DNA of 64,000 nt from Candidatus Thiosymbion ectosymbiont of Catanema sp. Cochon2018 (GTDB lineage Bacteria; Pseudomonadota; Gammaproteobacteria; Chromatiales; Chromatiaceae), in assembly GCA_011392765.1 (NCBI GenBank), contig WYCW01000004.1, forward strand, positions 573,846-637,845, in the 5' to 3' direction. The stretch's first letter is position 1. Each line of letters opens with the position of its first letter. A program made the position numbers and the translations under genes. Under the pieces are notes generated by a model that did not search any database, was not told where the DNA came from, and saw nothing but the letters and a program-made list of their open reading frames with translations. This document shows positions 4,631-52,175 of this stretch, piece after piece.

Positions 4631-5878
4631 TCAAACATCCTCCCAAAGACCGGCTATGGGCACGGCGTACCGATTTTTGCCGAAGGGGACGACGGCGTCT
4701 CCGTCATACAGTACCACCCCGGCCGCGAAACGCCGCCCCACCGCGTCCGCGAGTCTCCGCAGCCCCTTGAAGTCGTCCGAGGTCACTGTCGAGGCTGCCT
4801 TGACCTCGACCCCCGCCAGTTTGCCGACCGCCTCCAGCACCATGTCCACCTCGATTTGGTCCTTGTCGCGGAAATGACTGAAGGACAAGGCTTCTTCCTG
4901 CCAGGTGGCCTGCCGCCGCAGCTCCTGGTAGATGAAGGTTTCCAGCACCTGCCCGAACAGGGCGCGGTCGTCCCATAAAGTCGAGGCGTTCAGGCCGAGA
5001 AGAGCACATACCAGCCCGGTATCGCCCAGATGCAGCTTGGGCGTTTTGATCAGGCGTTTCAGCCGGCTACTGTGCCAGGGCGGCAGTTCATCCAGCAGGA
5101 AGATCCGCGACAACAGCGTGATGTACTCGCGAATGGTCGGGCGGCTCACCTGAAAGGGCGCGGCCAGATTGGACACATTCAACAGCCGAGCTGTCTGACC
5201 GGCGGCCAGTGCCAGCAGGCGCGGCAGGGCATCCGGCAGGCTGATGTGGGTAAGATCGCGAACATCGCGCTGAACCAGGGTATCGGCATAGTCCCTGTAC
5301 CAGGCCGTTCGTCGCCGCACCGTGGCTCGCCTCAGCGCCGCCGGAAACCCGCCCGCCGTCACGCGCTCCGCCAGCAACCGGCCCAGCCGCCTCCCGACGA
5401 TACCCGCCTTGAATCCCCCTCCAAACAATGTCGGCAGGAAACCGGTCGATCCCCCTGCAATCTCCGCCTGGGCCATCGGATGCAGGCGCAGGATCTCCAT
5501 GCGGCCGGCCAGCGAATCGGCAAGCCTCGGAACGAGCAGCACATGGGCCGAGCCGGTCAGGATAAAACGCCCGGCTTCCCGCCGGGCATCCACCGCGGCC
5601 TTCAACGACGTGAACAATTCCGGGACCCGCTGCACTTCATCCAGGATCACCCGCTCCGGGAGATCGGCGACATATCCCACCGGATCCGCCTGCGCCGCGG
5701 CCCGCTGCACGTCATCGTCAAAGCTGAGATAGGCATACCCCTCCGCAGCGCCCACCTGCCGGGCCAGCGTCGTCTTGCCGCTCTGTCGCGGCCCATGAAT
5801 CAGCACCACGGGCGAATCCGCCAATGCCTCCATTACCCGCGGCCGGAGGTATCTGGGGTAGAGATCGGCTTCCTGCAT
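4631..5878 (-). CDS. AAA+ ATPase with DUF4143-type C-terminal region
   Basis: Walker A GPRQSGKTT and a Walker B-like VILDEVQ. At 415 aa the architecture is typical of the stand-alone 'ATP-binding protein, DUF4143' family. Confidence 0.8.
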   Translation of the reverse strand: MQEADLYPRYLRPRVMEALADSPVVLIHGPRQSGKTTLARQVGAAEGYAYLSFDDDVQRAAAQADPVGYVADLPERVILDEVQRVPELFTSLKAAVDARREAGRFILTGSAHVLLVPRLADSLAGRMEILRLHPMAQAEIAGGSTGFLPTLFGGGFKAGIVGRRLGRLLAERVTAGGFPAALRRATVRRRTAWYRDYADTLVQRDVRDLTHISLPDALPRLLALAAGQTARLLNVSNLAAPFQVSRPTIREYITLLSRIFLLDELPPWHSSRLKRLIKTPKLHLGDTGLVCALLGLNASTLWDDRALFGQVLETFIYQELRRQATWQEEALSFSHFRDKDQIEVDMVLEAVGKLAGVEVKAASTVTSDDFKGLRRLADAVGRRFAAGVVLYDGDAVVPFGKNRYAVPIAGLWEDV

Positions 5879-37502: not shown

Positions 37503-37623
37503 CGTGGACAACATGGACTGAATGGACCCAATGGACTGGGGGCAGCTCAGCGCGTCGCAGGTTAGTGGGGCGTTACCAGTTGTCCCCCGTCCACTTTGTC
37601 CATGCCGTCCATGCTGTCCATGG
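37503..37623. repeat. TGGAC-word inverted arms around a ~55 bp loop
   Basis: gtggacaacatggactgaatggacccaatggac ... gtccactttgtccatgccgtccatgctgtccat. It ends 30 nt before the Hsp70-like start codon. Confidence 0.85.
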
Positions 37624-37652
37624 CGGTTGCCCGAAACCTGTCGGAACCCTCA

Positions 37653-40508
37653 ATGTCCCGTTACGCCGTCGGTATCGATCTTGGAACCACCCACACGGTC
37701 GTCGCCTATGCCGACGAGGAGGCGCCCCAAGCACCGCTCCAGGTCTTCCCGATCGACCAATTGGTGGCCCCCGGGGAGGTCGCGGCACGTCCCCTGCTCA
37801 CCTCCATGCGCTACCATCCGGCCGACGGCGAGTTGGCCGACGAAGACCGTATCCTCCCCTGGCAATTGGCCGCGGCTGCCGATGCCGGCGGGGAAGTGGA
37901 AGAAACGGGAGCAGTGGAAAAAACGGGGGCAGTGAAAAAAGCGATCATCGGCGCGCTCGCACGGGAGTTGGGGTCCAAGGTCCCCGGACGGCTGGTCACC
38001 AGCGCCAAAAGCTGGCTCTCGCACCCCGGCGTCGACCGTACCGCGGCCATCCTGCCCTGGGGGGCCGCGCCGGAGGTCCCGCAGGTTTCGCCCCTGGACG
38101 CCAGTGCCGGCTATCTGAGCCACGTCCGTCGGGCCTGGAATCATCGCTTTCCGAACGACCCCCTCGAACACCAGGACATCGTCCTCACGGTCCCCGCCTC
38201 GTTCGACGAGGTCGCCCGGCGGCTCACGGTGGAGGCCGCCCGGCGCGGCGGTCTGCCGCGGGTCCGGTTGGTGGAGGAGCCCCAGGCCGCCTGCTACGAT
38301 TGGCTCGCCCGCCACGCCGAGACACTCGGGCAGGCCCTCTCCGGCGTCCGTACCCTGCTGATCTGCGATGTCGGCGGCGGCACCACCGACCTGACCCTGA
38401 TCCGCGTAGAGCACGCTGACGGCCACCCCCGCTTGGTGCGTATCGGCGTCGGCGAGCACCTGATGCTGGGGGGCGACAATATGGACCTGGCCCTGGCCCA
38501 CATCGCCGAGCGACGATTGGTGGAAGCCGGCGGCCGACTCGGTGCCGCGCAGCTCTCGCAGCTGGTGCAGCAGTGTCGTAACGCCAAGGAGCGGTTACTT
38601 GCACATCAGGCCCCCAAGACCGCATCCGTTACTCTGGTGGGAACGGGCGCGCGCCTGATCGGTCAGGCCCGCTCGACGGAGCTCGGCCGCGATGAGGTCC
38701 AAGAGCTGATCGTCGACGGCTTCTTTCCGCGCACGGCTCCCGACGAACGCCCCCGGTCCAGGCGGGCAGCCCTCGTGGAGTTCGGGCTCCCCTATGCCGC
38801 CGACCCGGCCATTACTCGCCACCTGGCCGCCTTTCTGGCGGATCACGCGGCGGACCTGGCGGCGGGGAGCCATAGCCCGGCTACCCCCGGTGCCGTACCG
38901 GTGCCTGACGCGGTGCTGCTGAACGGCGGTGTATTTCGCAGCGCGGTCCTCGTAGAAAGACTCTTCGAGATCCTGGGTACCTGGCGGGGCGAGCCCCCAC
39001 GGGCGCTATCCAACGACCACCCCGACCTGGCGGTTGCCCGCGGCGCCGTGGCTTACGCCCTGGCCAGACAGGGGCGCGGTGCGCGCATCGGCGGCGGCTC
39101 GGCGCGCAGCTATTTCCTGATGATCGAGGAGGCAATGCGGGATACGCAACGCGCGGTCTGCCTGCTGCCGCGCGGATCGGAAGAGGGCCGGGAGTTGCGC
39201 CTGACCGAACGCCGGTTCTCGTTACGCCTGGGCCAACCGGTGCGCTTCGGCCTCCTCGCCGCCACCGGTGACCGATGCTCCTTGCCCGGTGAGCTGGTCG
39301 AGGTCGATCGCGAACGGTTTCGACCGCTGCCCCCGCTGGCCACCGTCCTCGACGGCCCGGCGGATGCGGACGTGGGAGACGCCCGCGAGGTCCCGGTCCA
39401 GCTGGCGGCCATGCTCACGGACATCGGCACGTTGGAAATCGACTGTGTTGCAACCGATGCGGCCCCGGCTGACCTCAAACGGCGGTGGCGCCTGGAGTTT
39501 CAGCTCCGCGGCCAGGGGGAGAAGGCGGCCGCGGCTATACCCGCGGAGTTTCCCGCGGGTTTCTCTCAGGCGGTGGAACGGATCGAACGGGTCTATGGGA
39601 GCCGGATCGCGGGCGTCGGGCCCAAGGAAGCCAAAACGCTGCAGCGGGACCTGGAAAAGCTCCTCGGCCGCCGCGACACCTGGGAGATTCCGGTGCTGCG
39701 CGAGCTCTTCGGTGTCCTCTGGGACGGCGTCAAACGCCGGCGGCGCAGCGCCGATCATGAGCGCTTGTGGTTCAATCTGGCCGGCTTTTGCTTGCGCCCC
39801 GGCTACGGCTATCCACTCGATGACTGGCGCCTCCGACAGCTCCGGACCCTCTATGAGCAGGGAGTCCAATACCAGGACGAAGCGCGTAACCAGGCCGAAT
39901 GGTGGACCCTGTGGCGGCGTGTCGGCGGCGGCCTGGATCAGGCCCGGCAGCTGCGCATCTTCGGGGACATCGAGGGCCACCTCCACAAGCCCGGCGGCCG
40001 CAGTGGAAAAAGTGAAAAAAGTGGAAAAAGCGCGCAGACGCCGGCCTATGACGCCCTGATCCAGTTAGTGGCGGGCCTCGAACGACTGCCCCCCGAGCAC
40101 AAGGCGCGGCTCGGCGAGTTGCTGTTGCAGGCGGGGCGGAGACCCACCGATGCGACCCGGCGCTGGTGGGCCCTGGGACGTCTGGGGGCGCGGGTCCCCT
40201 TTTACGGCAGCGTGCACCAGGTAGTACCGCGTTCTCTCGCCGAGGCCTGGCTCGAACAGCTGTTCGGCCTCGACTGGCGGGCCGTGGCACCGGCGGCATT
40301 CGCGGCCACCCAGCTGGCGCGGATGAGTGGAGACCGCGAGCGGGACCTGGATTCGGCGGTGCGCGAACGGGTCGTCGTACGCCTGCGCAAAGAGAAGGCC
40401 CCTCAAAGATGGATCGCCATGGTGCAGGCGGTTACCGAGCTCGATGCCTCGGAGGAGGCGCTCATCTTCGGCGAATCCCTGCCCCCCGGCCTGCGGTTGG
40501 TCGGCTGA
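37653..40508 (+). CDS. Large Hsp70/actin-fold ATPase-like protein (~950 aa) with a ~400 aa uncharacterised C-terminal region
   Basis: Phosphate-1 motif YAVGIDLGTTHTVVA and phosphate-2 LICDVGGGTTDLTLI. The C-terminal half has no motif I recognise. The start at 37653 is preferred because upstream codons lie in the repeat. Confidence 0.8.
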   Translation: MSRYAVGIDLGTTHTVVAYADEEAPQAPLQVFPIDQLVAPGEVAARPLLTSMRYHPADGELADEDRILPWQLAAAADAGGEVEETGAVEKTGAVKKAIIGALARELGSKVPGRLVTSAKSWLSHPGVDRTAAILPWGAAPEVPQVSPLDASAGYLSHVRRAWNHRFPNDPLEHQDIVLTVPASFDEVARRLTVEAARRGGLPRVRLVEEPQAACYDWLARHAETLGQALSGVRTLLICDVGGGTTDLTLIRVEHADGHPRLVRIGVGEHLMLGGDNMDLALAHIAERRLVEAGGRLGAAQLSQLVQQCRNAKERLLAHQAPKTASVTLVGTGARLIGQARSTELGRDEVQELIVDGFFPRTAPDERPRSRRAALVEFGLPYAADPAITRHLAAFLADHAADLAAGSHSPATPGAVPVPDAVLLNGGVFRSAVLVERLFEILGTWRGEPPRALSNDHPDLAVARGAVAYALARQGRGARIGGGSARSYFLMIEEAMRDTQRAVCLLPRGSEEGRELRLTERRFSLRLGQPVRFGLLAATGDRCSLPGELVEVDRERFRPLPPLATVLDGPADADVGDAREVPVQLAAMLTDIGTLEIDCVATDAAPADLKRRWRLEFQLRGQGEKAAAAIPAEFPAGFSQAVERIERVYGSRIAGVGPKEAKTLQRDLEKLLGRRDTWEIPVLRELFGVLWDGVKRRRRSADHERLWFNLAGFCLRPGYGYPLDDWRLRQLRTLYEQGVQYQDEARNQAEWWTLWRRVGGGLDQARQLRIFGDIEGHLHKPGGRSGKSEKSGKSAQTPAYDALIQLVAGLERLPPEHKARLGELLLQAGRRPTDATRRWWALGRLGARVPFYGSVHQVVPRSLAEAWLEQLFGLDWRAVAPAAFAATQLARMSGDRERDLDSAVRERVVVRLRKEKAPQRWIAMVQAVTELDASEEALIFGESLPPGLRLVG

Positions 40509-42084: not shown

Positions 42085-42639
42085 ATGCTAGTAAATCATT
42101 CGAACGAAAAGCTTGTTAATGCCATCATTTACTTTGTGAAAAACACAAAGTTTTGCGGCAAGACCAAGCTGTTTAAACTGCTCTATTTTCTTGATTTTGA
42201 ACATTACTCTATTACAGGTCGAAGTGTTACGGGTTTGGAGTACCATGCATGGCCAAAAGGTCCGGTTCCTGTCCGAATATTCAATGAGATAGATGCTCCC
42301 GCCAATGAATTCAAGGATGCTTTTCGAATAACAAAGAAGAAAACTTTCCAAGGAAAAGTAATGAACAATATTGTTCCACTAAAAGAGTTTTCACCGGATC
42401 ACTTTACCAAAAGGGAATTGAGATTACTAAAACAGCTAAGTGAAGAATATTCTGAGTCCTATGCGAATGACATGGTGGAGGCAACTCATCTCGAGAATTT
42501 ACCCTGGCACCAGATCTATGAGATTAGGGGTTTAAAGCAAGAACTGATACTGTATGAGCTTGCTCTTAAAAAATCGGAATATGAGCAAGTAATCAAAAAC
42601 GCCTATGAAAATGAAGAGCTTGAGGAGAACTATCGGTGA
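42085..42639 (+). CDS. Panacea/DUF4065 (SocA-like) domain protein, putative antitoxin
   Basis: TKLFKLLYFLDFEHYSITGRSVTGLEYHAWPKGPVP matches the DUF4065 core. The gene is strongly AT-rich relative to its flanks. Confidence 0.7.
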   Translation: MLVNHSNEKLVNAIIYFVKNTKFCGKTKLFKLLYFLDFEHYSITGRSVTGLEYHAWPKGPVPVRIFNEIDAPANEFKDAFRITKKKTFQGKVMNNIVPLKEFSPDHFTKRELRLLKQLSEEYSESYANDMVEATHLENLPWHQIYEIRGLKQELILYELALKKSEYEQVIKNAYENEELEENYR

Positions 42640-42764
42640 CTCCTGGAACTTTTCTTTATGATGACAATTTCAAATTTCATGATGGCGCAGTGGGCCGTAA
42701 AATTTTCGTAGTATTAAACAATGGCACTTCGGGAACATACGTTGCCGCCAAAACAACATCTTGA
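42636..42764 (+). pseudogene. 42-codon ORF translationally coupled (GTGA overlap) to the Panacea gene; possible truncated toxin
   Basis: VTPGTFLYDDNFKFHDGAVGRKIFVVLNNGTSGTYVAAKTTS*. Its position is as expected for the cognate toxin, but the ORF is too short and is followed by MITE-B copy 3. Confidence 0.3.
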
Positions 42765-42797
42765 CAAAACGCTCCAGTGGTAGGTCGGGTTAGGTGC

Positions 42798-42949
42798 CAA
42801 TGCCATTAAGTTAAGCGTTGCCAGTCGGCAAACCAGAGGAAAAACTACGAATCACGCGAATCCTCGCGAATCGATTCGCGGAAATTCGCGTGATTCGTAG
42901 TTTTCTCTTCCGCATCGGTCAGCAACCAGCGACTAACTTAATGGCATTG
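42798..42949. mobile_element. MITE-like element family B, copy 3
   Basis: caatgccattaagtta ... taacttaatggcattg, nearly identical to 30055-30207. Confidence 0.85.
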
Positions 42950-43072
42950 GGTTAAACGCGCCGTGCGATGCGGGCCTGGGCAACCGCGAGGCTGAACGCG
43001 CCGTAACTCGACATCCAAGGATAACCCGCAGCGTCCTGTGCCCGGTACGGGGGTATCGCAAAAGTCCTTTCG

Positions 43073-43142
43073 AACCACAGAGGACACAGAGAACATAGAG
43101 AAAGGCACAGACCAATTCTCTGCGTTCTCTGTGTCCTCTGTG
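43073..43142. repeat. CACAGAG-word hairpin
   Basis: aaccacagaggacacagagaacatagag ... ctctgcgttctctgtgtcctctgtga. Confidence 0.85.
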
Positions 43143-43165
43143 ATTTGAACTTCACAGACTGATAG

Positions 43166-43294
43166 CTGACGCCACCGTTTTTGCGACGCCCTCGGTACGG
43201 TGGGGGGATCCGCTTCTCCCTCCATTTCCATACCCCGCCCGACGTCCTGGAGCAAGCCGTTCGGATAACCGCCGAGGCCGCGGCAAGCGGATAA
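43166..43294 (+). pseudogene. Orphan second copy of the 3' end of the class-V aminotransferase gene
   Basis: Reads ...[30 protein letters not shown], against GGIRFSPHFYTPHSILERAVRITAKITESKFAWK* at 41920-42021. It is preceded by in-frame stops. Confidence 0.7.
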
Positions 43295-43325
43295 CCGCCG
43301 CGCGCCCGATGAAGGTGTCGCAAAA

Positions 43326-43381
43326 GTAGCGCCGGCGTCCCCGCCTGCATTGGTTGATGCAGGCGAGGACGCCTGCGCTAC
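43326..43381. repeat. GTAGCGCNGGCG palindromic element, second copy
   Basis: gtagcgccggcgtccccgcctgca ttggttga tgcaggcgaggacgcctgcgctac, 20 nt upstream of the hsdM ATG. Confidence 0.8.
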
Positions 43382-43400
43382 AGTCGATCCGAGGGAGCCT

Positions 43401-44948
43401 ATGAGTAAGACCGACAACGGCGCCAATCTCGGCTTTGAGAACCGGATGTGGGCCGCCGCCGACAAGCTCCGGGGCCACATGGATGCCTCCGAGTACAAAC
43501 ACGTGGTCCTGGGTCTGATCTTCCTGAAATACATCTCCGACGCCTTCCAGGCCAAGTACGAGCAATTGGAGACGACCCAGGACACCGAATACACGGACCC
43601 GGAAGACCGCGACGAATACCTGGCAGCCAATATCTTCTGGGTCCCGCCGGAGGCCCGCTGGGCCAGGCTGCAGGCCGGCGCCAAGCAATCGACCATCGGC
43701 AAGCTGGTCGATAACGCGATGGCGGCCATCGAGAAAGAGAACCCGACTCTCAGGGGCGTTCTCCCCCAAGACTATGCCCGGCCGTCGCTGGACAAACACC
43801 GGTTGGGTGAACTGATCGACATCATCGGCAAGATTGGGCTGGGGGACGAGGCGGCCCGGTCGAAAGATATCCTGGGCCGGGTGTACGAGTATTTCCTGGG
43901 TCGCTTCGCCGCGGCGGAAGGCAAGGGCGGCGGCGAATTCTACACCCCCCAGTGCGTCGTCAAGCTGCTGGTCCGGATGCTCGAGCCCTATAAGGGCCGC
44001 GTGTACGACCCCTGCTGCGGCTCGGGTGGCATGTTCGTCCAGAGCAAGCGGTTTGTCGAGGAGCACGGCGGCCGGCTGGGCGACATCGCCCTCTATGGTC
44101 AGGAATCCAACGCCACCACCTGGCGGCTGGCCATGATGAACCTGGCGATCCGGGGGCTCGACGCCAACCTCGGCGGTTTTTATGCGGACAGCTTCCATAA
44201 GGACCTGCACCAGGACCTGCGGGCCGATTTCGTCCTCGCCAATCCGCCCTTCAATATGAGCGACTGGGGCGGCGAGCGCCTACGCGAGAACGCCCGCTGG
44301 AAATACGGCATCCCGCCGGTGAACAACGCCAACTACGCCTGGATTCAGCATTTCATTCACCACCTGTCTCCCACAGGGGTTGCCGGCTTTGTCATGGCCA
44401 ACGGGTCCATGTCCACCAACACCACGAGCGAGGGGGAAATCCGCAGGGGCATCATCGAGGCGGATCTGGTGGATTGCATGATCGCCCTGCCCGGCCAACT
44501 CTTTTATACGACCCAGATCCCGGTGTGCCTGTGGTTCCTGGCCCGCAACAAAAAGAACGGCAGGTTCCGGGATCGGCGCGGTCATACGCTCTTCATCGAT
44601 GCACGCAAGCTGGGCGCCCTCATCGACCGGACCCACAAGGATTTTTCCGACCAGGAGATCGACCGAGTCGCCGCGACCTATCACGCCTGGCGCGGCGAGC
44701 AGGAGGCCGAGGAATACGCGGACGTGCCGGGCTTCTGCAAGAGCGCCGCCATCGAGGAGATCAGAGAGCACGGCTATGTGTTGACCCCAGGCCGCTATGT
44801 GGGCGCGGCCGAGGATACCGGTGTTCCCTTTGACCAAAAGATGGCGGAGCTGACCGCAACGCTTAATAAGCAGTTCGCCGAATCGGCTGCGCTGGAAAAG
44901 GAGATCGAGAAGAACCTGGCGGCGCTGGGTTTCGAGGTGAAAAAATGA
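43401..44948 (+). CDS. hsdM: Type I restriction-modification system methyltransferase subunit
   Basis: N-terminal HsdM domain ([38 protein letters not shown]), SAM motif DPCCGSGGM and catalytic NPPF. The ATG at 43401 follows GAGGGA. Confidence 0.92.
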
Positions 44949-45184
44949 ATGTGAGCGAACTCATCGAGAAGTTGAAAGGTTGCCCTCAGAACGCCCGTGT
45001 CGTTGCACCGGGCTATGAAGATGGGTTTGATGACGTGCTGGATACGCAAGACGTGTTCATCAAGCCGAACGCCAACGTCGAACGATGGTACGAAGGCCTG
45101 CACGACCACCTTTTGCACGATGAATCAGGCGCGGAAAAAGCGGTTCGCTTGATGACGAGCCGCCGATATGGAGATAGCGACTGA
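44945..45184 (+). CDS. Small hypothetical protein (79 aa) overlapping the hsdM stop (ATGA)
   Basis: Translational coupling signature and coding-like composition. No motif recognised. Confidence 0.5.
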
Positions 45185-45602
45185 TATGGTCGAATACGAC
45201 AAGTTTCAGAAAGCACTCAAACACCTTGAACGCCAGTACGAACATTACAGGACGCTCGATGAAAACCAGCCGGAACTGATCCATGAAGGTATTGCGGAAT
45301 CAGTCATTCATCGCTTTGAAACCTGCTATGACTGCATGTGGAAAGTACTCCGACGCTATCTGATAAATGAGTTGGGAATTCCTGAAGTCCCCAGCAGTCC
45401 GAAGAAAGTTATTCGACTTGCCGGAGAAAACGAGTTGTTCGCTTCATCAACGGAACAGTGGCTGAAATATGCCGAAGCGCGTATTGCTACTTCGCATGAC
45501 TACAGTGGTGAGAAGGCCATGGATGCTCTGGAGCTGATGGGCGACTTCATCGACGATGCGATTGGCCTCTACCAGACCATAAGTGGAGAGACTTGGGAGT
45601 GA
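45168..45602 (+). CDS. HEPN-domain protein, HI0074-type nucleotidyltransferase substrate-binding family (putative toxin), copy 1
   Basis: Four-helix pattern with an Rx4H motif (ARIATSHDYSGEKA). Confidence 0.8.
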   Translation: MEIATDMVEYDKFQKALKHLERQYEHYRTLDENQPELIHEGIAESVIHRFETCYDCMWKVLRRYLINELGIPEVPSSPKKVIRLAGENELFASSTEQWLKYAEARIATSHDYSGEKAMDALELMGDFIDDAIGLYQTISGETWE

Positions 45603-45649
45603 ATGACGGGCGGAAATGGCTGTCCGATCGAAGACCAATCGATGTACCG

Positions 45650-46081
45650 ATGGAGAATAGCGGGATGGATACGGAGCGGCTTGAAAACTCGATCCGGCGC
45701 CTCGCGCAGATGTTGGAGGAGTACGAACGCATCGAGGAGCTCGAAGAGCGCTTGCAGGAGGCGGTGAAGGAATCCTTGCTGCAGCGATTCGAGTACAGCT
45801 GGGAAATGGCCTGGAAGACGGGGAAACGCTATCTCGTCGAGGTCGAAGGTTACCCGAGGGGAATCGGGCCGAATCCCACGGTTCGCCTGCTGGGCGAGTT
45901 GGGCCTGCTCGATCCCGAAAAGTGGCTGGTCTACGCCCAAGCCCGGCAGGACTCCTCGCACGATTACAGCGGCGAAAAGGCGGATTCCGTGCTGGAGATG
46001 ATCGCTGGTTTCTATGCGGATGCGCGCGCGTTGCTGGCAAGACTCGACGAGCGGCTGGAAGACCGGCGGGCGGAACCATGA
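45650..46081 (+). CDS. HEPN-domain protein, HI0074-type, copy 2
   Basis: A paralogous pattern with Rx4H (ARQDSSHDYSGEKA). Its stop overlaps the next ATG (ATGA). The start could also be 45665. Confidence 0.8.
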   Translation: MENSGMDTERLENSIRRLAQMLEEYERIEELEERLQEAVKESLLQRFEYSWEMAWKTGKRYLVEVEGYPRGIGPNPTVRLLGELGLLDPEKWLVYAQARQDSSHDYSGEKADSVLEMIAGFYADARALLARLDERLEDRRAEP

Positions 46082-47784
46082 TCGACCTGCGCGACGATCA
46101 GATGGCGCTGGTGCGGCGCATTCTTGCCGAGCAGGTGCCGGAATGCGAGGTACGGGCCTTCGGATCGCGTGTGACCTGGACCGCCGGCGACAACTCCGAC
46201 TTGGACCTGGTTGTGATCGGCACGGGAAAGCTTGGCTGGCAAACCATGGCCGGGATCAGGGACGCCTTCGAGGAATCGATACTGCCCTTTCGCGTGGACC
46301 TGCTCGATTGGCATGTTATTCCCAAGAGCTTTCGCAAGAATATTCTTGAGGGGTACGAGGTGATTCAGAACCCCATCATGAGAGGCAACGGCGATGAAAA
46401 ATTGATTGAACATATAAAAGATGAGGGAGTGAAGCGGTACGGGTGGTTCTGGGGTGCGGGGGGTGAATTTCAGACGGCACGACTAGGCAACTTCGCAGAG
46501 GTTCAGACAGGGCCATTTGGTAGTCAGCTTCATAAAAAGGACTATGTTGATGTCGGCACACCAATCATTACAGTGGAACATTTAGGTGACAATCGAATTA
46601 TCCATTCAAACCTTCCGCGTGTTTCAGACAAAGACCGTCTGCGCCTAAGCAAATATTGGATACAGAAAGGAGATATTGTTTTCAGCCGTGTTGGTTCAGT
46701 TGACCGTAGAGCATATGTGCACGAGCAAGAGGACGGCTGGTTGTTTTCTGGTCGTTGTCTGCGAGTTCGTGTAACTGACAAAAATCTAAATTCACGCTTT
46801 CTATCATTTTTCTTCGGGCTGGAAAGTATCAAGGAGCATATTCGTCAGATAGCTGTAGGTGCAACAATGCCATCATTGAACACATCCTTGTTAAGTAACC
46901 TTGAAATAATTATTCCACCTCTATCCGAACAACGTGCCATCGCCCACATCCTCGGCACACTCGACGACAAGATCGAATTGAACCGGCGCATGAACGAGAC
47001 GCTGGAGGCCATGGCCCGCGCCATCTTCAAATCCTGGTTCGTGGATTTCGACCCGGTACGTGCCCGTGGGGGCGAATTACCATTCGCCCTGAACCTGCCG
47101 TCTGAAATTCTGAATCTCTTCCCCGACAGCTTCGAGGATTCGGAGCTGGGGGAGATTCCGAGGGGGTGGGAGATCAACTCAATTGGTGAGGTCGTTCGGT
47201 GTGTCGGCGGGTCAACGCCAAGCACCAAGAGTCCTGCATTATGGGATGGCGGCACGAATCCTCTTGTGACCCCCAAGGATATGTCATCACTTACAAGCCC
47301 AATAATACTGGATACAGCTCGCCACATTACCGACGCTGGCGTTGACAAGATAAGTTCAGGTCGTCTTCCCACGGGGACCGTTCTTCTCTCCTCAAGGGCA
47401 CCTATCGGCTATCTTGCTATAGCAAAAGTACCTGTTTCGGTAAACCAGGGCATCATCGCGATGATCTGTGATAAATCGCTGCCCAATTACTATGTGCTGT
47501 ATTGGATAGAGGCAAATATGGAAACCATCAAGAGCAACGCTGGTGGAACTACATTTGCCGAAATCAGCAAACGCAATTTCAGGCCTATCCAAGTCGTTGT
47601 TCCCCATGAACGTGTTCTTGAGGCTTTTATTCAACAGGTCGGGGCGTTGCACAAGCAACTAGTTCTCAACCTCCAAGAATCAAACACCCTTACTTTCCTC
47701 CGCGACCTGCTCCTCCCCAAACTGATTTCCGGCGAGCTGCGGGTCCCGGATGCCGAGAGGTTCATTGCGGAGGCCGGGGTATGA
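46078..47784 (+). CDS. hsdS: Single ORF encoding an N-terminal MNT (minimal nucleotidyltransferase, putative antitoxin) domain fused in frame to a complete type I specificity subunit HsdS
   Basis: Residues 1-~97 read MIDLRDDQMALVRRILAEQVPECEVRAFGSRVTWTAGDNSDLDLVVIG...RVDLLDWH (GS...DxD NTase motif). TRD1, the central conserved region (LSEQRAIAHILGTLDDKIELNRRMNETLEAMARAIFKSWFVDFDP), TRD2 and the distal conserved region (LRDLLLPKLISGEL) follow. There is no stop codon between the two parts. Confidence 0.75.
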   Translation: MIDLRDDQMALVRRILAEQVPECEVRAFGSRVTWTAGDNSDLDLVVIGTGKLGWQTMAGIRDAFEESILPFRVDLLDWHVIPKSFRKNILEGYEVIQNPIMRGNGDEKLIEHIKDEGVKRYGWFWGAGGEFQTARLGNFAEVQTGPFGSQLHKKDYVDVGTPIITVEHLGDNRIIHSNLPRVSDKDRLRLSKYWIQKGDIVFSRVGSVDRRAYVHEQEDGWLFSGRCLRVRVTDKNLNSRFLSFFFGLESIKEHIRQIAVGATMPSLNTSLLSNLEIIIPPLSEQRAIAHILGTLDDKIELNRRMNETLEAMARAIFKSWFVDFDPVRARGGELPFALNLPSEILNLFPDSFEDSELGEIPRGWEINSIGEVVRCVGGSTPSTKSPALWDGGTNPLVTPKDMSSLTSPIILDTARHITDAGVDKISSGRLPTGTVLLSSRAPIGYLAIAKVPVSVNQGIIAMICDKSLPNYYVLYWIEANMETIKSNAGGTTFAEISKRNFRPIQVVVPHERVLEAFIQQVGALHKQLVLNLQESNTLTFLRDLLLPKLISGELRVPDAERFIAEAGV

Positions 47785-47905
47785 GTGGACACAATGGACA
47801 GCATGGACGACTTGGACAATATGGACATGCCGGATTCGACGATGAGGTCGAGGGGTTGGATCTGTGTACCCCGGCTGCCGAGAGGTTCACTGCGGAGGTC
47901 GGAGT

Positions 47906-48610
47906 ATGAGTGGACGGAATGGACAGGATGGACAAAGTGGACGGGGAATGAGAGGTAAACCGACCGAGGGACTGATTCCCAGGCACGGCGGCTACCGCAA
48001 GCTGAAGAGCTTTCAAATCGCGCAATTGGTCTATGACGTGACGGTGCGGTTTTGTGACCGCTATATCAATAAACGCAGCCGTACCCACGACCAGATGGTG
48101 CAGGCGGCACGCTCGGGGGTACAAAACATCGCGGAGGGCAGCAAGGCCTCGGGTACATCCAAAAAGACCGAACTGAAGCTGACCAATGTGGCGCGGGCAA
48201 GCCTCGAAGAATTACGCCTGGATTATGAGGATTTTCTCCGACAACGGTGCTTGCCGCAGTGGGAGCGAGAGGACCCGCGCTGGGCGGAGCTCATCAATCG
48301 GCGGTGTTCTACTGCCGATGAGGTGGCACAGTGGATACGAGAGGTCCATGATGGAAATGGACAAAGTGGACAATATGGACAAGGTGGACAAAATGGACCG
48401 TCCATGAAGTCCACGCTGTCCATTCCGTCCACTCAGTCCACCAAGTCCACTTATCCCGAAATAGCCGCCAATGCCGCACTGGTCCTGATCGCCGTGGCGT
48501 GCAGCCTGCTCGACCGTCAGCTTGCCGCTCAGGCCGACGCCTTCGAGGCAGAAGGTGGGTTTACCGAACGCCTTTATAAAAGACGGACCCAGGCGCGGAG
48601 GAGACAATGA
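47906..48610 (+). CDS. Four-helix-bundle protein (23S rRNA intervening-sequence protein family) with C-terminal 'suffix' region; carries an in-frame TGGAC-word hairpin insertion
   Basis: YRKLKSFQIAQLVYDVTVRFCDRYI...THDQMVQAARSGVQNIAEGS is typical of the family. The start is ATG 47906 or 47948. The insertion lies at 48350-48450. Confidence 0.75.
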   Translation: MSGRNGQDGQSGRGMRGKPTEGLIPRHGGYRKLKSFQIAQLVYDVTVRFCDRYINKRSRTHDQMVQAARSGVQNIAEGSKASGTSKKTELKLTNVARASLEELRLDYEDFLRQRCLPQWEREDPRWAELINRRCSTADEVAQWIREVHDGNGQSGQYGQGGQNGPSMKSTLSIPSTQSTKSTYPEIAANAALVLIAVACSLLDRQLAAQADAFEAEGGFTERLYKRRTQARRRQ

Positions 48611-48669
48611 GCGCCATCTATTTCCGAAGATGGCTACGGCAACGGATGTCACGATGATGAGGCCGGTCT

Positions 48670-49677
48670 ATGAACGAAATCATTTTCTACCGCACGCCGG
48701 ATGGCGATAAGAAAATCGAGGTGACATTTCAGGATGAAAATTTCTGGATGACACAAAAGGCTATTGCCCGGCTATTTGGAGTTGAAGTACCTGCTATCAG
48801 CAAGCATTTGGGAAATATTTACGAGACGGGAGAGCTGGAGCGGAAAGCAACTATTTCCATTTTGGAAACAGTTCGACGGGAGGGCGCCCGCAGCGTCAAG
48901 CGGAAGCTGGAGTACTATAGCCTCGACGCCATCATCGCCGTGGGCTACCGGGTCAACAGTTATCAGGCCACCCAATTCCGTATATGGGCGACTAAAACCC
49001 TTAAGGAGTTTATCATCAAAGGCTTTGTGCTGGATGATGAGCGGCTCAAGCAGGGACAGCGTTTTGGCAGGGATTATTTCGACGAGCTCCTGGAACGGAT
49101 TCGGGAGATCCGTGCCAGCGAACGGCGTTTTTATCAAAAGATCACTGATATTTACGCGCTGGCGGCCGATTACGACAAGGATGCCCCAATTACTAAGGAG
49201 TTCTTCGCCACCGTACAGAATAAGCTGCACTGGGCCATTACCGGGAAAACCGCCGCGGAGACCATCTATGACTCGGCCAATGCCGAAAAAATACACATGG
49301 GGCTGACAAGCTGGAAACAGGCGCCCGAAGGGAAAATTTTGAAATCGGATGTTTCCGTTGCCAAGAACTATTTGAGCGAGGCGCATATCAGGGAGTTGAA
49401 CCGCATTATCTCTGCTTATCTCGATCTTGCGGAAAACCGGGCTCAGCGGCAGATTCTAATGAAAATGGAGGACTGGGTTCGGTTTCTTCATAATTTTCTG
49501 GAGCTTGCCAACTACCCTATTCTGGAAGGCAAGGGCAAGGTGAGTGCCCTAGACGCCAAACTCAAAGCCGAACAGGAATATGATACCTATCGCAAGCGAC
49601 AGGATCGGGAGTTTATTTCGGACTTTGACCGAGCAATCAAACGGGTTCAGGGAAAGCAAAAGGAAAACAATGGATAA
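48670..49677 (+). CDS. rhuM: RhuM-family protein
   Basis: MNEIIFYRTPDGDKKIEVTFQDENFWMTQKAIARLFGV...IIAVGYRVNSYQATQFRIWATKTLKEFIIKGFVLDDERLK is typical of RhuM. Confidence 0.85.
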   Translation: MNEIIFYRTPDGDKKIEVTFQDENFWMTQKAIARLFGVEVPAISKHLGNIYETGELERKATISILETVRREGARSVKRKLEYYSLDAIIAVGYRVNSYQATQFRIWATKTLKEFIIKGFVLDDERLKQGQRFGRDYFDELLERIREIRASERRFYQKITDIYALAADYDKDAPITKEFFATVQNKLHWAITGKTAAETIYDSANAEKIHMGLTSWKQAPEGKILKSDVSVAKNYLSEAHIRELNRIISAYLDLAENRAQRQILMKMEDWVRFLHNFLELANYPILEGKGKVSALDAKLKAEQEYDTYRKRQDREFISDFDRAIKRVQGKQKENNG

Positions 49678-52175
49678 AACGACCGAAGCCACCCTGGAAC
49701 AAACCACGCTCGAATGGTTTGCATTGCTCGGCTGGCAGACCGCCTTCGGCCCCGACATCGGCCCGGAGGGTCCGGCCCGCGAACGCACGGGCTATGATCA
49801 GGTCGTCTTGCCCGAGAGGCTCCGATCCGCGCTCATAAACATCAACTCGGACCTCCCGCCGGCCGCCATCGACGAGGCCGTCCGGAAAATTACCCGCACC
49901 GAGTCACGCAGCCTGATCGAGAACAACCGGCGTTTCCATCGAATGCTCACCGATGGGGTGGATGTCTCCTATCGGCGCAACGGGCGTGAGGTTCATGACA
50001 AGGTATGGCTGTTGGATCTCGCGGAGATCGAGAATAACGATTGGCTCGTGGTCAATCAGCTCAGGGTCATCGAGAATCGCAGAAACCGGCGGCCGGACCT
50101 GGTGGTCTTCGTCAACGGCCTGCCCTTGGGTGTAATCGAGCTCAAGAACCCCGCGGATGAGAAGGCGACCATCCGCCACGCCTTCAATCAGCTCAATACC
50201 TACAAGAACGACATTCCCGGCCTGTTCGTCTACAACGAGCTGCTCGTGATTTCCGATGGCCTGGAGGCCTGCGGCGGAACCCTCACCAGCGGTTGGGATC
50301 GGTTCATGCCCTGGCGGACCATCGAGGGCAAGGAAGTCGCTCCGCGAGGCTCGGTAGCGCTCGAGGTGTTGCTCAAGGGGGTCTTCGACAAGCGGCGCTT
50401 TCTCGACCTTCATCGGTTTCACGGGGACGCCGATCGAGCATGAAGACCGCAGTACCCCGGCGGTCTTCGGAAACTACATCGACCAGTACGACATCCTGCG
50501 GGCGGTCGAGGACGGGGCCACGGTCCCGATTTACTACGAAGGCAGATTGGCGAAGATCGGGCTGCGAGAAGAAGAAAAACCGACCATCGATCCCGAATTC
50601 GAGGAAATCACGGAGGGTGAAGAGGAGTCCGATAAGCAGAGATTGCGTACCAAGTGGGCCACCCTCGAAGCGATGGTCGGCACGGAAAAACGGATCGCGC
50701 TGGTCGCGGAAGACCTGGTCAATCACTTTGAAGCCCGCCTCTCCGCCCTGGACGGCAAGGCGATGGTGGTCTGCATGAGCCGTCGCATCTGTGTGGATAT
50801 GTACCAGGCCATCGTGAAGCTCAGGCCGGATTGGCATCGCGCCGACGACGGCCAGGGGGTGCTGAAAGTCGTCATGTCCGGCTCGGCGTCGGATCATACC
50901 GAGTGGCAGTCCCATATCCGCGACAAGCCGCGACGTGAGGCCCTGGCCAAGCGGTTCAAGGACCCGGACGACCCCATGCAAGTAGTAATCGTGCGGGATA
51001 TGTGGCTGACCGGATTCGACTGCCCGTCGCTGCATACGATGTACGTGGACAAGCCCATGCGGGGGCACAGTCTGATGCAGGCAATCGCCCGAGTCAACCG
51101 GGTATTCAAGGATAAACCGGGGGGATTGGTAGTCGACTACCTGGGCCTGGCGGATCAGTTGAAACGGGCCCTCGCGGACTATACCGAAGCGGGCGGCCGC
51201 GGCCAGGCGGCGGTCGACCAGGAACAAGCCGTCGCAGTGATGCGGGAGAAGTACGAGGTGGTCGTCTCCATGTTCCACGGCTTCGATTACGCTACCTATC
51301 TCCAAGCGGAACCGACCCGGCGTATCGCCGCCGCTATGGATCATATCCTGCAGTTAGAGGACGGGAAGAAGCGCTTTTTCAAGGAGGTAAGGGCGCTGTC
51401 GAAGGCCTTTGCCCTCGCCGTCCCGCATGAGCAAGCCTTAAAAATCCGGGATGAGGTCGGGTTCTTCCAGGAGGTCCGCGCCGGCTTGGTAAAGGCAACG
51501 GTCGCCGGCGAAGGCAGGACCCCCGAAGAGATGGATACCGCGATCCGCCAGTTGGTATCCAGGGCCGTGGCGCCGGCAGGGGTCATCGACATCTTCGCCG
51601 CGGCGGGATTGAAAAAGCCGGATATTTCGATCCTCTCGGATGAGTTTCTCCAGGAGGTCCGGCAGCTCCCCCACCGGAATCTCGCCGTCGAGCTGCTCCG
51701 AAAACTCCTGCACGACGAGATCAGGACGAGTGCCCGCAAGAACGTCGTCCAGTCACGCTCCTTTGCGGAGATGCTGGAGCAGGCCGTCAGGAAGTACCAA
51801 AACCGGGCGGTCGAGGCCACGCAGGTCATCGAGGAACTGATCGAGCTGGCCAGGGAGATGCGCGCGGCTCAAAGACGCGGTGCCGACCTCGGCATGACCG
51901 ATGAAGAGGTCGCTTTTTACGATGCCCTGGAAGTCAACGATAGTGCCGTCAAGGTCTTGGGGGATGAGACGCTGAAAATGATTGCCCATGAGCTGGTCGC
52001 GGCGGTCCGACGGAGCCTGACGATCGACTGGACCGTGCGCGAAAACGCCCGCGCCCGGATCCGGGTGATTGTGAAAAAGATTCTCCGCAAGTATGGATAT
52101 CCACCGGACAAAGAGGAAAAAGCGACACAAACCGTTTTGGAACAGGCGGAGGTGCTCTGCAAAGAGTGGATTTGA
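49670..52175 (+). pseudogene. hsdR: Type I restriction subunit HsdR with an internal deletion plus frameshift that removes helicase motifs I-II
   Basis: The N-terminal nuclease domain (RPDLVVFVNGLPLGVIELK) runs to ...KRRFLDL and then reaches a stop at 50441-50443. Another frame, open from 50358, reads [46 protein letters not shown] and continues to 52175 through helicase domain 2 ([35 protein letters not shown]). I find no GxGKS/T or DEAH motif in any frame. Confidence 0.8.

Follow-up and report, generated by a model that had tools for sequence, protein, structure and literature searches.

A nucleotidyltransferase domain joined in frame to HsdS, next to two HEPN genes, in a type I restriction-modification operon of a Thiosymbion ectosymbiont

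Genes of the operon and the fused reading frame

In a 64,000-nucleotide stretch of contig WYCW01000004.1 from Candidatus Thiosymbion ectosymbiont of Catanema sp. Cochon2018, referred to as the window throughout, the plus strand between 43.3 and 52.2 kb forms one tightly packed string of genes running from hsdM to hsdR of a type I restriction-modification (R-M) operon. The order on this strand is hsdM, a small open reading frame (ORF) of 79 aa termed orf79, two genes for HEPN-family proteins (HEPN1 and HEPN2), and a single ORF of 568 aa, MNT::HsdS, in which a minimal nucleotidyltransferase (MNT) domain is followed by the specificity subunit HsdS with its two target recognition domains (TRD1 and TRD2). 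The features up to the end of the fused ORF are listed below; L001 denotes the locus encoding the closest unfused HsdS (protein P0003), and AF2 denotes AlphaFold2.

43401..44948, plus strand: hsdM, type I methyltransferase subunit (Pfam HsdM_N and N6_Mtase, 3.5e-106; LANPPFN in the translation)
44945..45184, plus strand: orf79, small conserved protein with no family match; its start overlaps the hsdM stop by 4 nt
45168..45602, plus strand: HEPN1, HI0074/HepT-like HEPN, predicted RNase toxin (PF08780, 75.4 bits; RIATSHDY)
45665..46081, plus strand: HEPN2, divergent second HEPN, predicted RNase toxin (PF08780, 75.8 bits; RQDSSHDY)
46078..46368, plus strand: MNT domain, residues 1-97 of the fused ORF, HI0073/MntA-type (PF18765 (Polbeta), 35.2 bits)
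46369..46455, plus strand: linker, residues 98-126, without a stop codon and with an in-frame ATG at 46378 (delimited by homology to L001 and by AF2)
46456..47784, plus strand: HsdS part, consisting of TRD1, a central conserved helix, TRD2 and a C-terminal conserved helix (two Methylase_S matches, 1e-41)

The fused ORF begins at ATG 46078, in an ATGA that overlaps the stop codon of HEPN2, and runs free of stops to 47784. An earlier note, made from the letters of the window, had described this overlap, an MNT of about 97 residues at the N-terminus and a frame that stays open into a complete HsdS with two TRDs, and all three descriptions held. The MNT domain exceeded the Pfam cutoff for PF18765 (26.9 bits) and carries the signature FGS-x10-DLD...RVDLLD, in which G29-S30-x10-D41-x-D43 and D74 make up an exact GS-x10-DxD motif plus the third aspartate. 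A profile of fused MNT domains matched HI0073 (PDB 1no5) with E=9e-35 and MntA (PDB 5yep) with 1.6e-7. In the remainder of the protein (residues ~127-568), the PADLOC model Specificity_I covered residues 141-566 (8.5e-126), so that HsdS is complete with both TRDs. This part is 80-82% identical at the amino acid level to the unfused proteins P0002 and P0003, and 78.6% identical at the nucleotide level to hsdS of L001.

By homology with the unfused L001, the linker between the two parts comprises about 28 aa (residues 98-125/126) and not the roughly 45 aa that had been estimated before. The AF2 model, which was calculated on the alignment, reached a mean predicted local distance difference test score (pLDDT) of 87.7. 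Both MNT (residues 1-97, pLDDT ~90) and HsdS (residues 126-568) were predicted with confidence, the latter with long helices at 282-322 and 511-551, and linker residues 101-125 scored 38-52. A separate HsdS starting at ATG 46378 had also been considered in the earlier note. This ATG is in frame, but the sole sequence resembling a Shine-Dalgarno (SD) element, GAGGTG, lies 15 nt upstream, and no methionine is conserved in the linkers of fused homologues. A linker motif, W-x-E-T-x-Y-G-x-F, was tried as a feature of the fusion and rejected, as it is tied to one type of TRD1 (within a set of 92 fused ORFs, it occurs in 6 of the 8 loci of the QTGPFGS type).

The two ORFs upstream of the fusion matched PF08780 with about 75 bits each (Pfam cutoff 31.8 bits), and their Rx4H motifs, RIATSH and RQDSSH, are intact, as the first inspection of the sequence had indicated. 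HEPN1 has an alternative start at 45186, which would give 138 aa. The HEPN2 ORF opens at 45593, with the likely start being ATG 45665, preceded by GGAG 9 nt upstream; this 138-aa form is also the recorded gene call. The description of the pair as paralogous stood insofar as both belong to PF08780. However, they share only 33% identity and are thus distant subtypes and not recent paralogues, and a recent tandem duplication was ruled out by this low identity together with the different subtypes. For both proteins Pfam gave PF08780 alone, without an ATPase domain, and PADLOC had no model for either. Among solved structures, HEPN2 matched 1wty (8.5e-10), 8xdj, an entry named 'HEPN toxin' (2.8e-8), and HI0074 in 1jog (3.7e-6).

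The hsdM ORF opens with TTG at 43350 and its likely start is ATG 43401; the gene seems intact, with its NPPF motif kept. The overlaps between the genes of the operon suggest that their translation may be coupled. A promoter and terminator scan of 42600-48800 performed no better than on shuffled sequence and was uninformative on internal promoters.

Recurrence and conservation of the fusion

The full-length fused protein retrieved ~25 fused proteins among the top database matches, with lengths of 520-580 aa, 44-56% identity, ~100% coverage and both PF18765 and PF01420. Two of these carry names given by their source, which are 'restriction endonuclease subunit S' and 'type I restriction enzyme S subunit'. 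In the alignment of fused homologues, G29, S30, R31, S40, D41, D43 and D74 were near-invariant, and several unrelated TRD1 and TRD2 types were present; hence, exchanges of specificity have left the N-terminal domain in place. Five distinct fused homologues were inspected in their loci (six in number, L002-L007, as L003 and L004 share protein P0011), and for all five the genes followed the order hsdM-HEPN(PF08780)-MNT::HsdS-...-hsdR. In the six loci, the HEPN stop codon overlapped the start of the fusion, and variable accessory genes preceded hsdR.

A scan for MNT domains across one genome per species, using a query of five sequences, yielded 237 relatives. The best 80 of these loci and the six earlier ones were annotated by scanning stop-to-stop ORFs with custom hidden Markov models. 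Here, 68 of the 88 MNT ORFs were fused in frame to HsdS, and exactly one HEPN gene lay directly upstream in 60 of the 68. The hosts of the fusion include Chloroflexota (among them Dehalococcoidia), Acidimicrobiia, Verrucomicrobiota, Latescibacterota, Poribacteria, Deltaproteobacteria, Elusimicrobia, Clostridia and others. The motif GS..DxD..D was present in all MNTs (88/88), Rx4H in 78 of 80 HEPNs and the longer Rx4HxY in 75 of 80, and the frame was free of stops across the linker in at least 90 loci. HEPN genes between hsdM and hsdS occur in the window and in more than 80 related loci. MNT-HsdS fusions are therefore numerous in the databases, and the conservation of the RNase motif, on which the earlier reading of the HEPN genes depended, was confirmed.

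An independent search of metagenomes starting from HEPN2 returned 51 loci of at least 3 kb, about 22 of which showed the HEPN-MNT::HsdS architecture, the remainder being free HEPN-MNT pairs. A HMMER search of 1.8 billion cluster representatives found 1012 relatives of the MNT domain at E<=1e-10. Among the best 150 of these 1012, which represent clusters at 50% identity, 85 combined MNT with HsdS (54 of them at least 440 aa long) and 33 were free MNTs. At the level of sequence, MNT::HsdS is a real, recurrent and widespread architecture with the usual layout hsdM-HEPN-MNT::hsdS-(accessory genes)-hsdR.

The presence of two predicted toxins per antitoxin had been called unusual. The layout is rare indeed, but it is not unique to the window: a complete Chloroflexota chromosome (L031) carries a HEPN1-type gene and another HEPN gene followed by MNT::HsdS, and double cassettes occur in L016, L022 and L130. 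The type I operons of the latter three have tandem cassettes of the form HEPN-MNT(free)-HEPN-MNT::HsdS, and in L147 hsdS is a gene of its own that comes after a free MNT; these four loci look like intermediates between the free and the fused state. In L031, a different-family MNT with an in-frame stop (LFGSAATGRY*PGHSDLDFVV) precedes the HEPN1-type gene at ~4720-5050, and it looks like a decayed MNT-to-HEPN cassette beside the fused one.

HEPN1 is 67% identical to the HEPN beside the fused protein P0007 (L002) and 49-61% identical to HEPNs beside MNT::HsdS in ~15 loci. MNTs of the clade found in the window (57-65% identical) likewise pair with HEPN1-type genes elsewhere. For HEPN2, no relative above 48% identity was found in the loci or metagenomes searched. 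As HEPN2 and MNT share their base composition and overlap at the stop and start codons, HEPN2-MNT looks like a second cassette that may have replaced the original MNT, with two cassettes probably merged in the window.

Homologues of orf79 lie directly upstream of HEPN1-type genes in at least eight loci (L011, L013, L014, L019, L025, L032, L040 and L069) and in a Nitrospira locus. Relatives were also present across L168-L173, and in L168-L171 the order is hsdM-SLFN-orf79-HEPN-MNT::HsdS. A profile search yielded 1736 database relatives of ~77-81 aa. The family resides inside type I operons, mostly immediately before HEPN1-type genes and MNT::hsdS, and has the conserved motifs RVVV-x-GYE-x-GYDD and WEG-x-H. 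Judged by this gene order, orf79-HEPN1-MNT::hsdS is a recurrent sub-architecture. Searches of Pfam, NCBIfam, PADLOC and PDB gave no match for orf79, and the AF2 model based on 30 homologues (pLDDT 51.8) was too low in confidence for a fold search.

Origin of the window's version, downstream genes and decay of hsdR

The window is collinear with L001 at 78-81% nucleotide identity across hsdM, hsdS, the gene for a RhuM-family protein together with the N-terminus of hsdR, and the C-terminus of hsdR. For hsdM, the match spans 43416-44886 with 81% identity. The gap between hsdM and hsdS measures 31 bp in L001 versus 1555 bp in the window (44887-46441). This insert holds orf79, HEPN1, HEPN2, MNT and the linker, and homology to L001 resumes at 46442. 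The ATG of L001 hsdS aligns with codon 127 of the fused ORF, which is GCG.

GC content along the region is 0.47-0.53 in orf79-HEPN1, 0.57-0.66 in HEPN2-MNT, 0.43-0.50 in the linker and TRD1, 0.57-0.59 in the central conserved helix, ~0.45 in TRD2 (0.445-0.45 at 47400-47700) and 0.55-0.61 in the C-terminal helix. The fall past the MNT part, from 0.63-0.66 to 0.43-0.47, is thus as real as had been noted before, but its reading as the mark of a recombination joint was not supported. Because TRD2 drops in the same way and the conserved HsdS helices are GC-rich, the AT-rich stretch reflects ordinary TRD mosaicism, that is, TRD exchange.

Downstream of the fused ORF, the operon continues with the following features.

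47864..48610, plus strand: four-helix-bundle protein with a suffix domain (TIGR04258, 1.9e-19; TIGR02436, 1.5e-8)
48670..49677, plus strand: RhuM-family protein, accessory gene (PF13310, 1.9e-112; PADLOC PDC-S05, 2.8e-153; collinear with L001)
49670..52175, plus strand: hsdR pseudogene (tblastn with the intact HsdR of L001; blastn; Pfam)

The gene at 47864-48610 lies between hsdS and hsdR in an accessory slot that is taken by an AAA_13 gene in L001. The stop codon of the RhuM-family gene overlaps the start of hsdR, and the same position of this gene is kept in L001, L005 and L006. Tandem repeats of 9 bp of the TGGACA type occur at 47786-47942, just upstream of the 47864-48610 gene, and within it at 48355-48451. 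The arrays inside the gene, which code for a low-complexity insert, are oppositely oriented, with AAATGGACA x5 followed by AGTCCACTC x5. Shortly before the R-M operon, in a segment of 37-40% GC, a protein with a SocA/Panacea domain, which is an antitoxin-type domain, is encoded at 42085-42639; the ~700 bp after this gene contain no convincing gene, and a toxin that could be its partner was not identified. A 970-aa ORF (37596-40508), located some 1.5 kb upstream from the AT-rich island, combines an Hsp70-like N-terminus (GIDLGTTHTVVAY) with a long C-terminal extension.

The two parts of hsdR lie in different frames, the N-terminal nuclease at 49670-50443 and the C-terminal part at 50403-52175. 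With the intact L001 HsdR as query, tblastn placed aa 1-247 in frame 2, while the match to aa 464-1056 was in frame 3. Compared to L001, 653 bp are lost at ~50405-50411, removing ~216 aa (about aa 248-463) including the ResIII motor and shifting the frame, and the deletion junction shows a short microhomology of the TTCAT type. Correspondingly, Pfam detected HSDR_N and T1RH-like_C, and ResIII was not found. Despite the loss of hsdR, hsdM, both HEPN genes and the fused ORF are all intact. The restriction arm of the window is thus predicted to be dead, which would leave a configuration of HsdM, MNT::HsdS and toxin. The earlier suggestion of a decaying locus therefore applies to hsdR, but not to the fusion.

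A predicted toxin-antitoxin module wired to the methyltransferase complex

So far, these findings point to a type VII toxin-antitoxin module residing in a type I R-M operon, in which MNT::HsdS would be wired to the methyltransferase complex and would serve a guard or addiction function. To this reading we give a little better than an even chance. The biochemical precedent is MntA, whose GSX10DXD motif adds two or three AMPs to the tyrosine beside Rx4H of its HEPN partner and so blocks the RNase (PMC7641770; PMC13000451). The sequence features that this chemistry calls for are all present in the window. In the proposed mechanism, the fused MNT::HsdS would assemble with two HsdM into the methyltransferase core, joined by HsdR where this is intact, and one MNT would sit on each M2S1 or R2M2S1 complex. 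The MNT would oligo-AMPylate the tyrosine next to the Rx4H site of HEPN and thereby hold the RNase inactive, as MntA does to HepT. Newly made HEPN could then escape modification upon loss of the locus, upon depletion of S, or when the complex is distorted or blocked by anti-restriction proteins of phages, and the escaped HEPN would cleave RNA, resulting in growth arrest or abortive infection. As MNT is part of HsdS, an antitoxin domain would be present on every complex, and control of the toxin would depend on the presence, and perhaps the conformation, of that complex. The earlier note had proposed this tethering of MNT to M2S1; since the fusion is recurrent, its catalytic motifs are conserved (88/88) and HEPN lies directly upstream in most loci, this premise appears sound. 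The coupling of toxin control to the R-M complex, to which the covalent MNT-HsdS link points, is plausible.

A number of observations weigh against this reading. HEPN toxicity, AMPylation, complex formation and the triggers are for every member predictions from sequence. The window MNT scored 26.6 bits against the MntA equivalog NF047752, below the NCBIfam cutoff of 60 bits, and both HEPNs remained below that of TIGR01987 (HI0074), with 50.6 (HEPN1) and 44.6 versus 55.8 bits. A neighbour-joining tree built from 144 MNT domains requires at least ~19 changes between the fused and the unfused state; the states are still clustered on this tree, as shuffled labels gave 46 changes. In L041, L046, L037 and L147, MNT and hsdS are separate, overlapping genes. 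Given these repeated changes and separate genes, the covalent link is not obligatory. Linkers elsewhere are short and unconserved, typically 10-20 residues, variable and often basic, and run straight into the canonical N-terminus of HsdS; either a flexible tether or mere tolerance of the fusion would be in line with this. Translation may also initiate at the internal ATG 46378. Finally, most family members appear to keep hsdR and the window does not, so that the window copy may be non-functional as a defence.

Several of these points bear on the explanation that comes next in weight, although we regard it as unlikely. Here, the HEPN/MNT pair would be a neutral hitch-hiker or addiction cassette that inserted into a hot spot between hsdM and hsdS and keeps the island in place by post-segregational killing, the fusion being a tolerated by-product without any sensing of R-M. 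The repeated switching between states, the separate overlapping genes and the unconserved linkers are in line with this, as is the fact that free HEPN-MNT pairs belong to the same MNT clade, making up about half of the metagenome loci and 33 of the 150 representatives. The same slots of type I loci also take up many accessory genes that are unrelated to one another. On the other hand, the fused state dominates where MNT adjoins hsdS (68/88) and persists across phyla and TRD exchanges, whereas linkers without constraint would be expected to show frequent stops and frameshifts. A fused antitoxin could moreover not be degraded apart from HsdS, which changes the usual toxin-antitoxin logic. Production of HsdS mainly from an internal start, at ATG 46378 or elsewhere, or cleavage of the linker would likewise allow MNT and HsdS to act separately. 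An in-frame ATG just past the MNT domain, the predicted disorder of the linker and the alignment of the L001 start to codon 127 favour such separate products, but the improper spacing of the only SD-like sequence, the lack of a conserved linker methionine, the GCG at the position of the L001 ATG and the unbroken frame in at least 90 loci make them improbable.

Even less probable is a two-subunit nucleotidyltransferase in which HEPN would be the substrate-binding subunit and the target would be something else, for example the subunits of the R-M system, DNA ends or a component of a phage. In its favour, the solved structure nearest to the MNT is that of HI0073, and the partner of this protein, HI0074, was given the name of a substrate-binding subunit; the cutoff for MntA was also not reached. 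However, HEPNs that only bind substrate typically lose the Rx4H and tyrosine residues (PMC3710099), whereas the former motif is retained in 78 and the acceptor tyrosine in 75 of the 80 HEPNs here, and HEPN2 matches the solved 'HEPN toxin' 8xdj. The view that the fusion is a local accident, caused in a decaying locus by loss of the stop that once separated an MNT gene from hsdS, draws on the deletion and frameshift in hsdR of the same operon. No relative more than 65% identical in MNT was found in which the corresponding stop codon could be compared, and the cluster of the fused protein contains one NCBI member. This explanation, which the earlier note had offered as its alternative, we consider hardly credible and reject, since the same in-frame fusion with intact motifs recurs in dozens of distant genomes across many phyla; in addition, the window shows no damage to hsdM, to either HEPN or to the fused ORF.

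The toxin-antitoxin module that we favour shares features with known systems. Like HepT/MntA (Shewanella SO_3166/SO_3165; Haemophilus HI0074/HI0073), it has adjacent, co-directional HEPN and MNT with GS-x10-DxD and R-x4-H-x-Y. Unlike the free MNT of HepT/MntA (~100-140 aa), the window MNT is the N-terminal domain of HsdS. Further differences are the order of HEPN then MNT, the position inside a type I R-M operon, the two divergent HEPNs and the extra 79-aa gene. In FhepTA (PMC13000451), MNT is fused to its HEPN toxin, while in the window the fusion partner is HsdS and HEPN is separate. In PDB entry 9z7q, the C-terminus of chain I, 'Cmr1-MntA' (438 aa), matches the MNT profile; the entry is known by its name, no paper on it having been found, and this name suggests that CRISPR type III complexes, too, have a subunit with an MntA-type domain fused to it.

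As in PrrC-EcoprrI, a gene for an RNase of the HEPN superfamily is embedded among hsdM, hsdS and hsdR. PrrC is proposed to be kept latent by the type Ic R-M system EcoprrI and released by Stp of phage T4 (PMC3710099; PMC12707154). PrrC includes an ABC-ATPase domain for its regulation, and its contact with the R-M complex is non-covalent, whereas in the window a separate small HEPN is predicted to be controlled by an enzyme domain attached to HsdS. In Ronin, HsdMS without HsdR restrains the 61-aa toxin RonA until proteins of the Ocr/ArdA type appear (Silas et al. 2023 preprint, decoy immunity). With its dead hsdR, the window has the same component logic; the toxin is, however, predicted to be a HEPN RNase instead of the membrane peptide RonA, and the restraint would be enzymatic, by AMPylation through the fused domain. 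As most members appear to keep hsdR, the MNT::HsdS family as a whole is, unlike Ronin, not a decoy. The HEPNs and orf79 of the window showed no homology to PrrC (ABC-ATPase plus anticodon nuclease) or RonA (61-aa transmembrane peptide).

HEPN/MNT systems, HEPN genes in R-M operons and toxins guarded by R-M are thus known already, and the fusion of MNT to HsdS appears to be the new part. Anantharaman et al. proposed R-M-linked HEPNs as PrrC-like second lines (PMC3710099). We found no published description of MNT fused to HsdS; the legend to Figure 5 of PMC3710099 defines 'RM_TRD', and the figure may depict such a fusion without comment. The fusion is described in none of PMC3710099, PMC3632139, PMC2701414, PMC12707154, PMC12839542 and PMC13000451, and both HEPN and nucleotidyltransferases are absent from a 2025 review on the biology of R-M. 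A broader proposal, which we put forward as tentative, is that hsdM-HEPN-MNT::hsdS represents a widespread, undescribed class of type I R-M systems with a built-in guard. In such a class, tethering of the adenylyltransferase to S would turn the methyltransferase or restriction complex into the sensor; AMPylation would lapse once this complex is blocked or distorted by anti-restriction proteins of phages or engages unmodified DNA, HEPN would be released at the complex and the infection aborted, and the ~78-aa orf79 family would be a third component in one subfamily.

Guard layers that sense an attack on restriction, among them PrrC, PARIS, Ronin and retrons, are an active topic, and a sensor that is clearly linked to its effector in physical terms is found in few of them. 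In the family described here, this link would be written in the structure of the gene, with a predicted enzymatic antitoxin in the DNA-recognition subunit in at least 85 of the best 150 clusters and in many phyla. If the proposed function is true, the fusion offers a simple and testable model of a toxin-antitoxin module wired to an R-M complex, would explain the frequent occurrence of HEPN genes inside type I operons, and would mark as bifunctional many proteins whose present annotation says no more than 'restriction endonuclease subunit S'. Even a fusion that is simply tolerated would show that type I loci have a hot spot there and one way in which their cassettes are exchanged.

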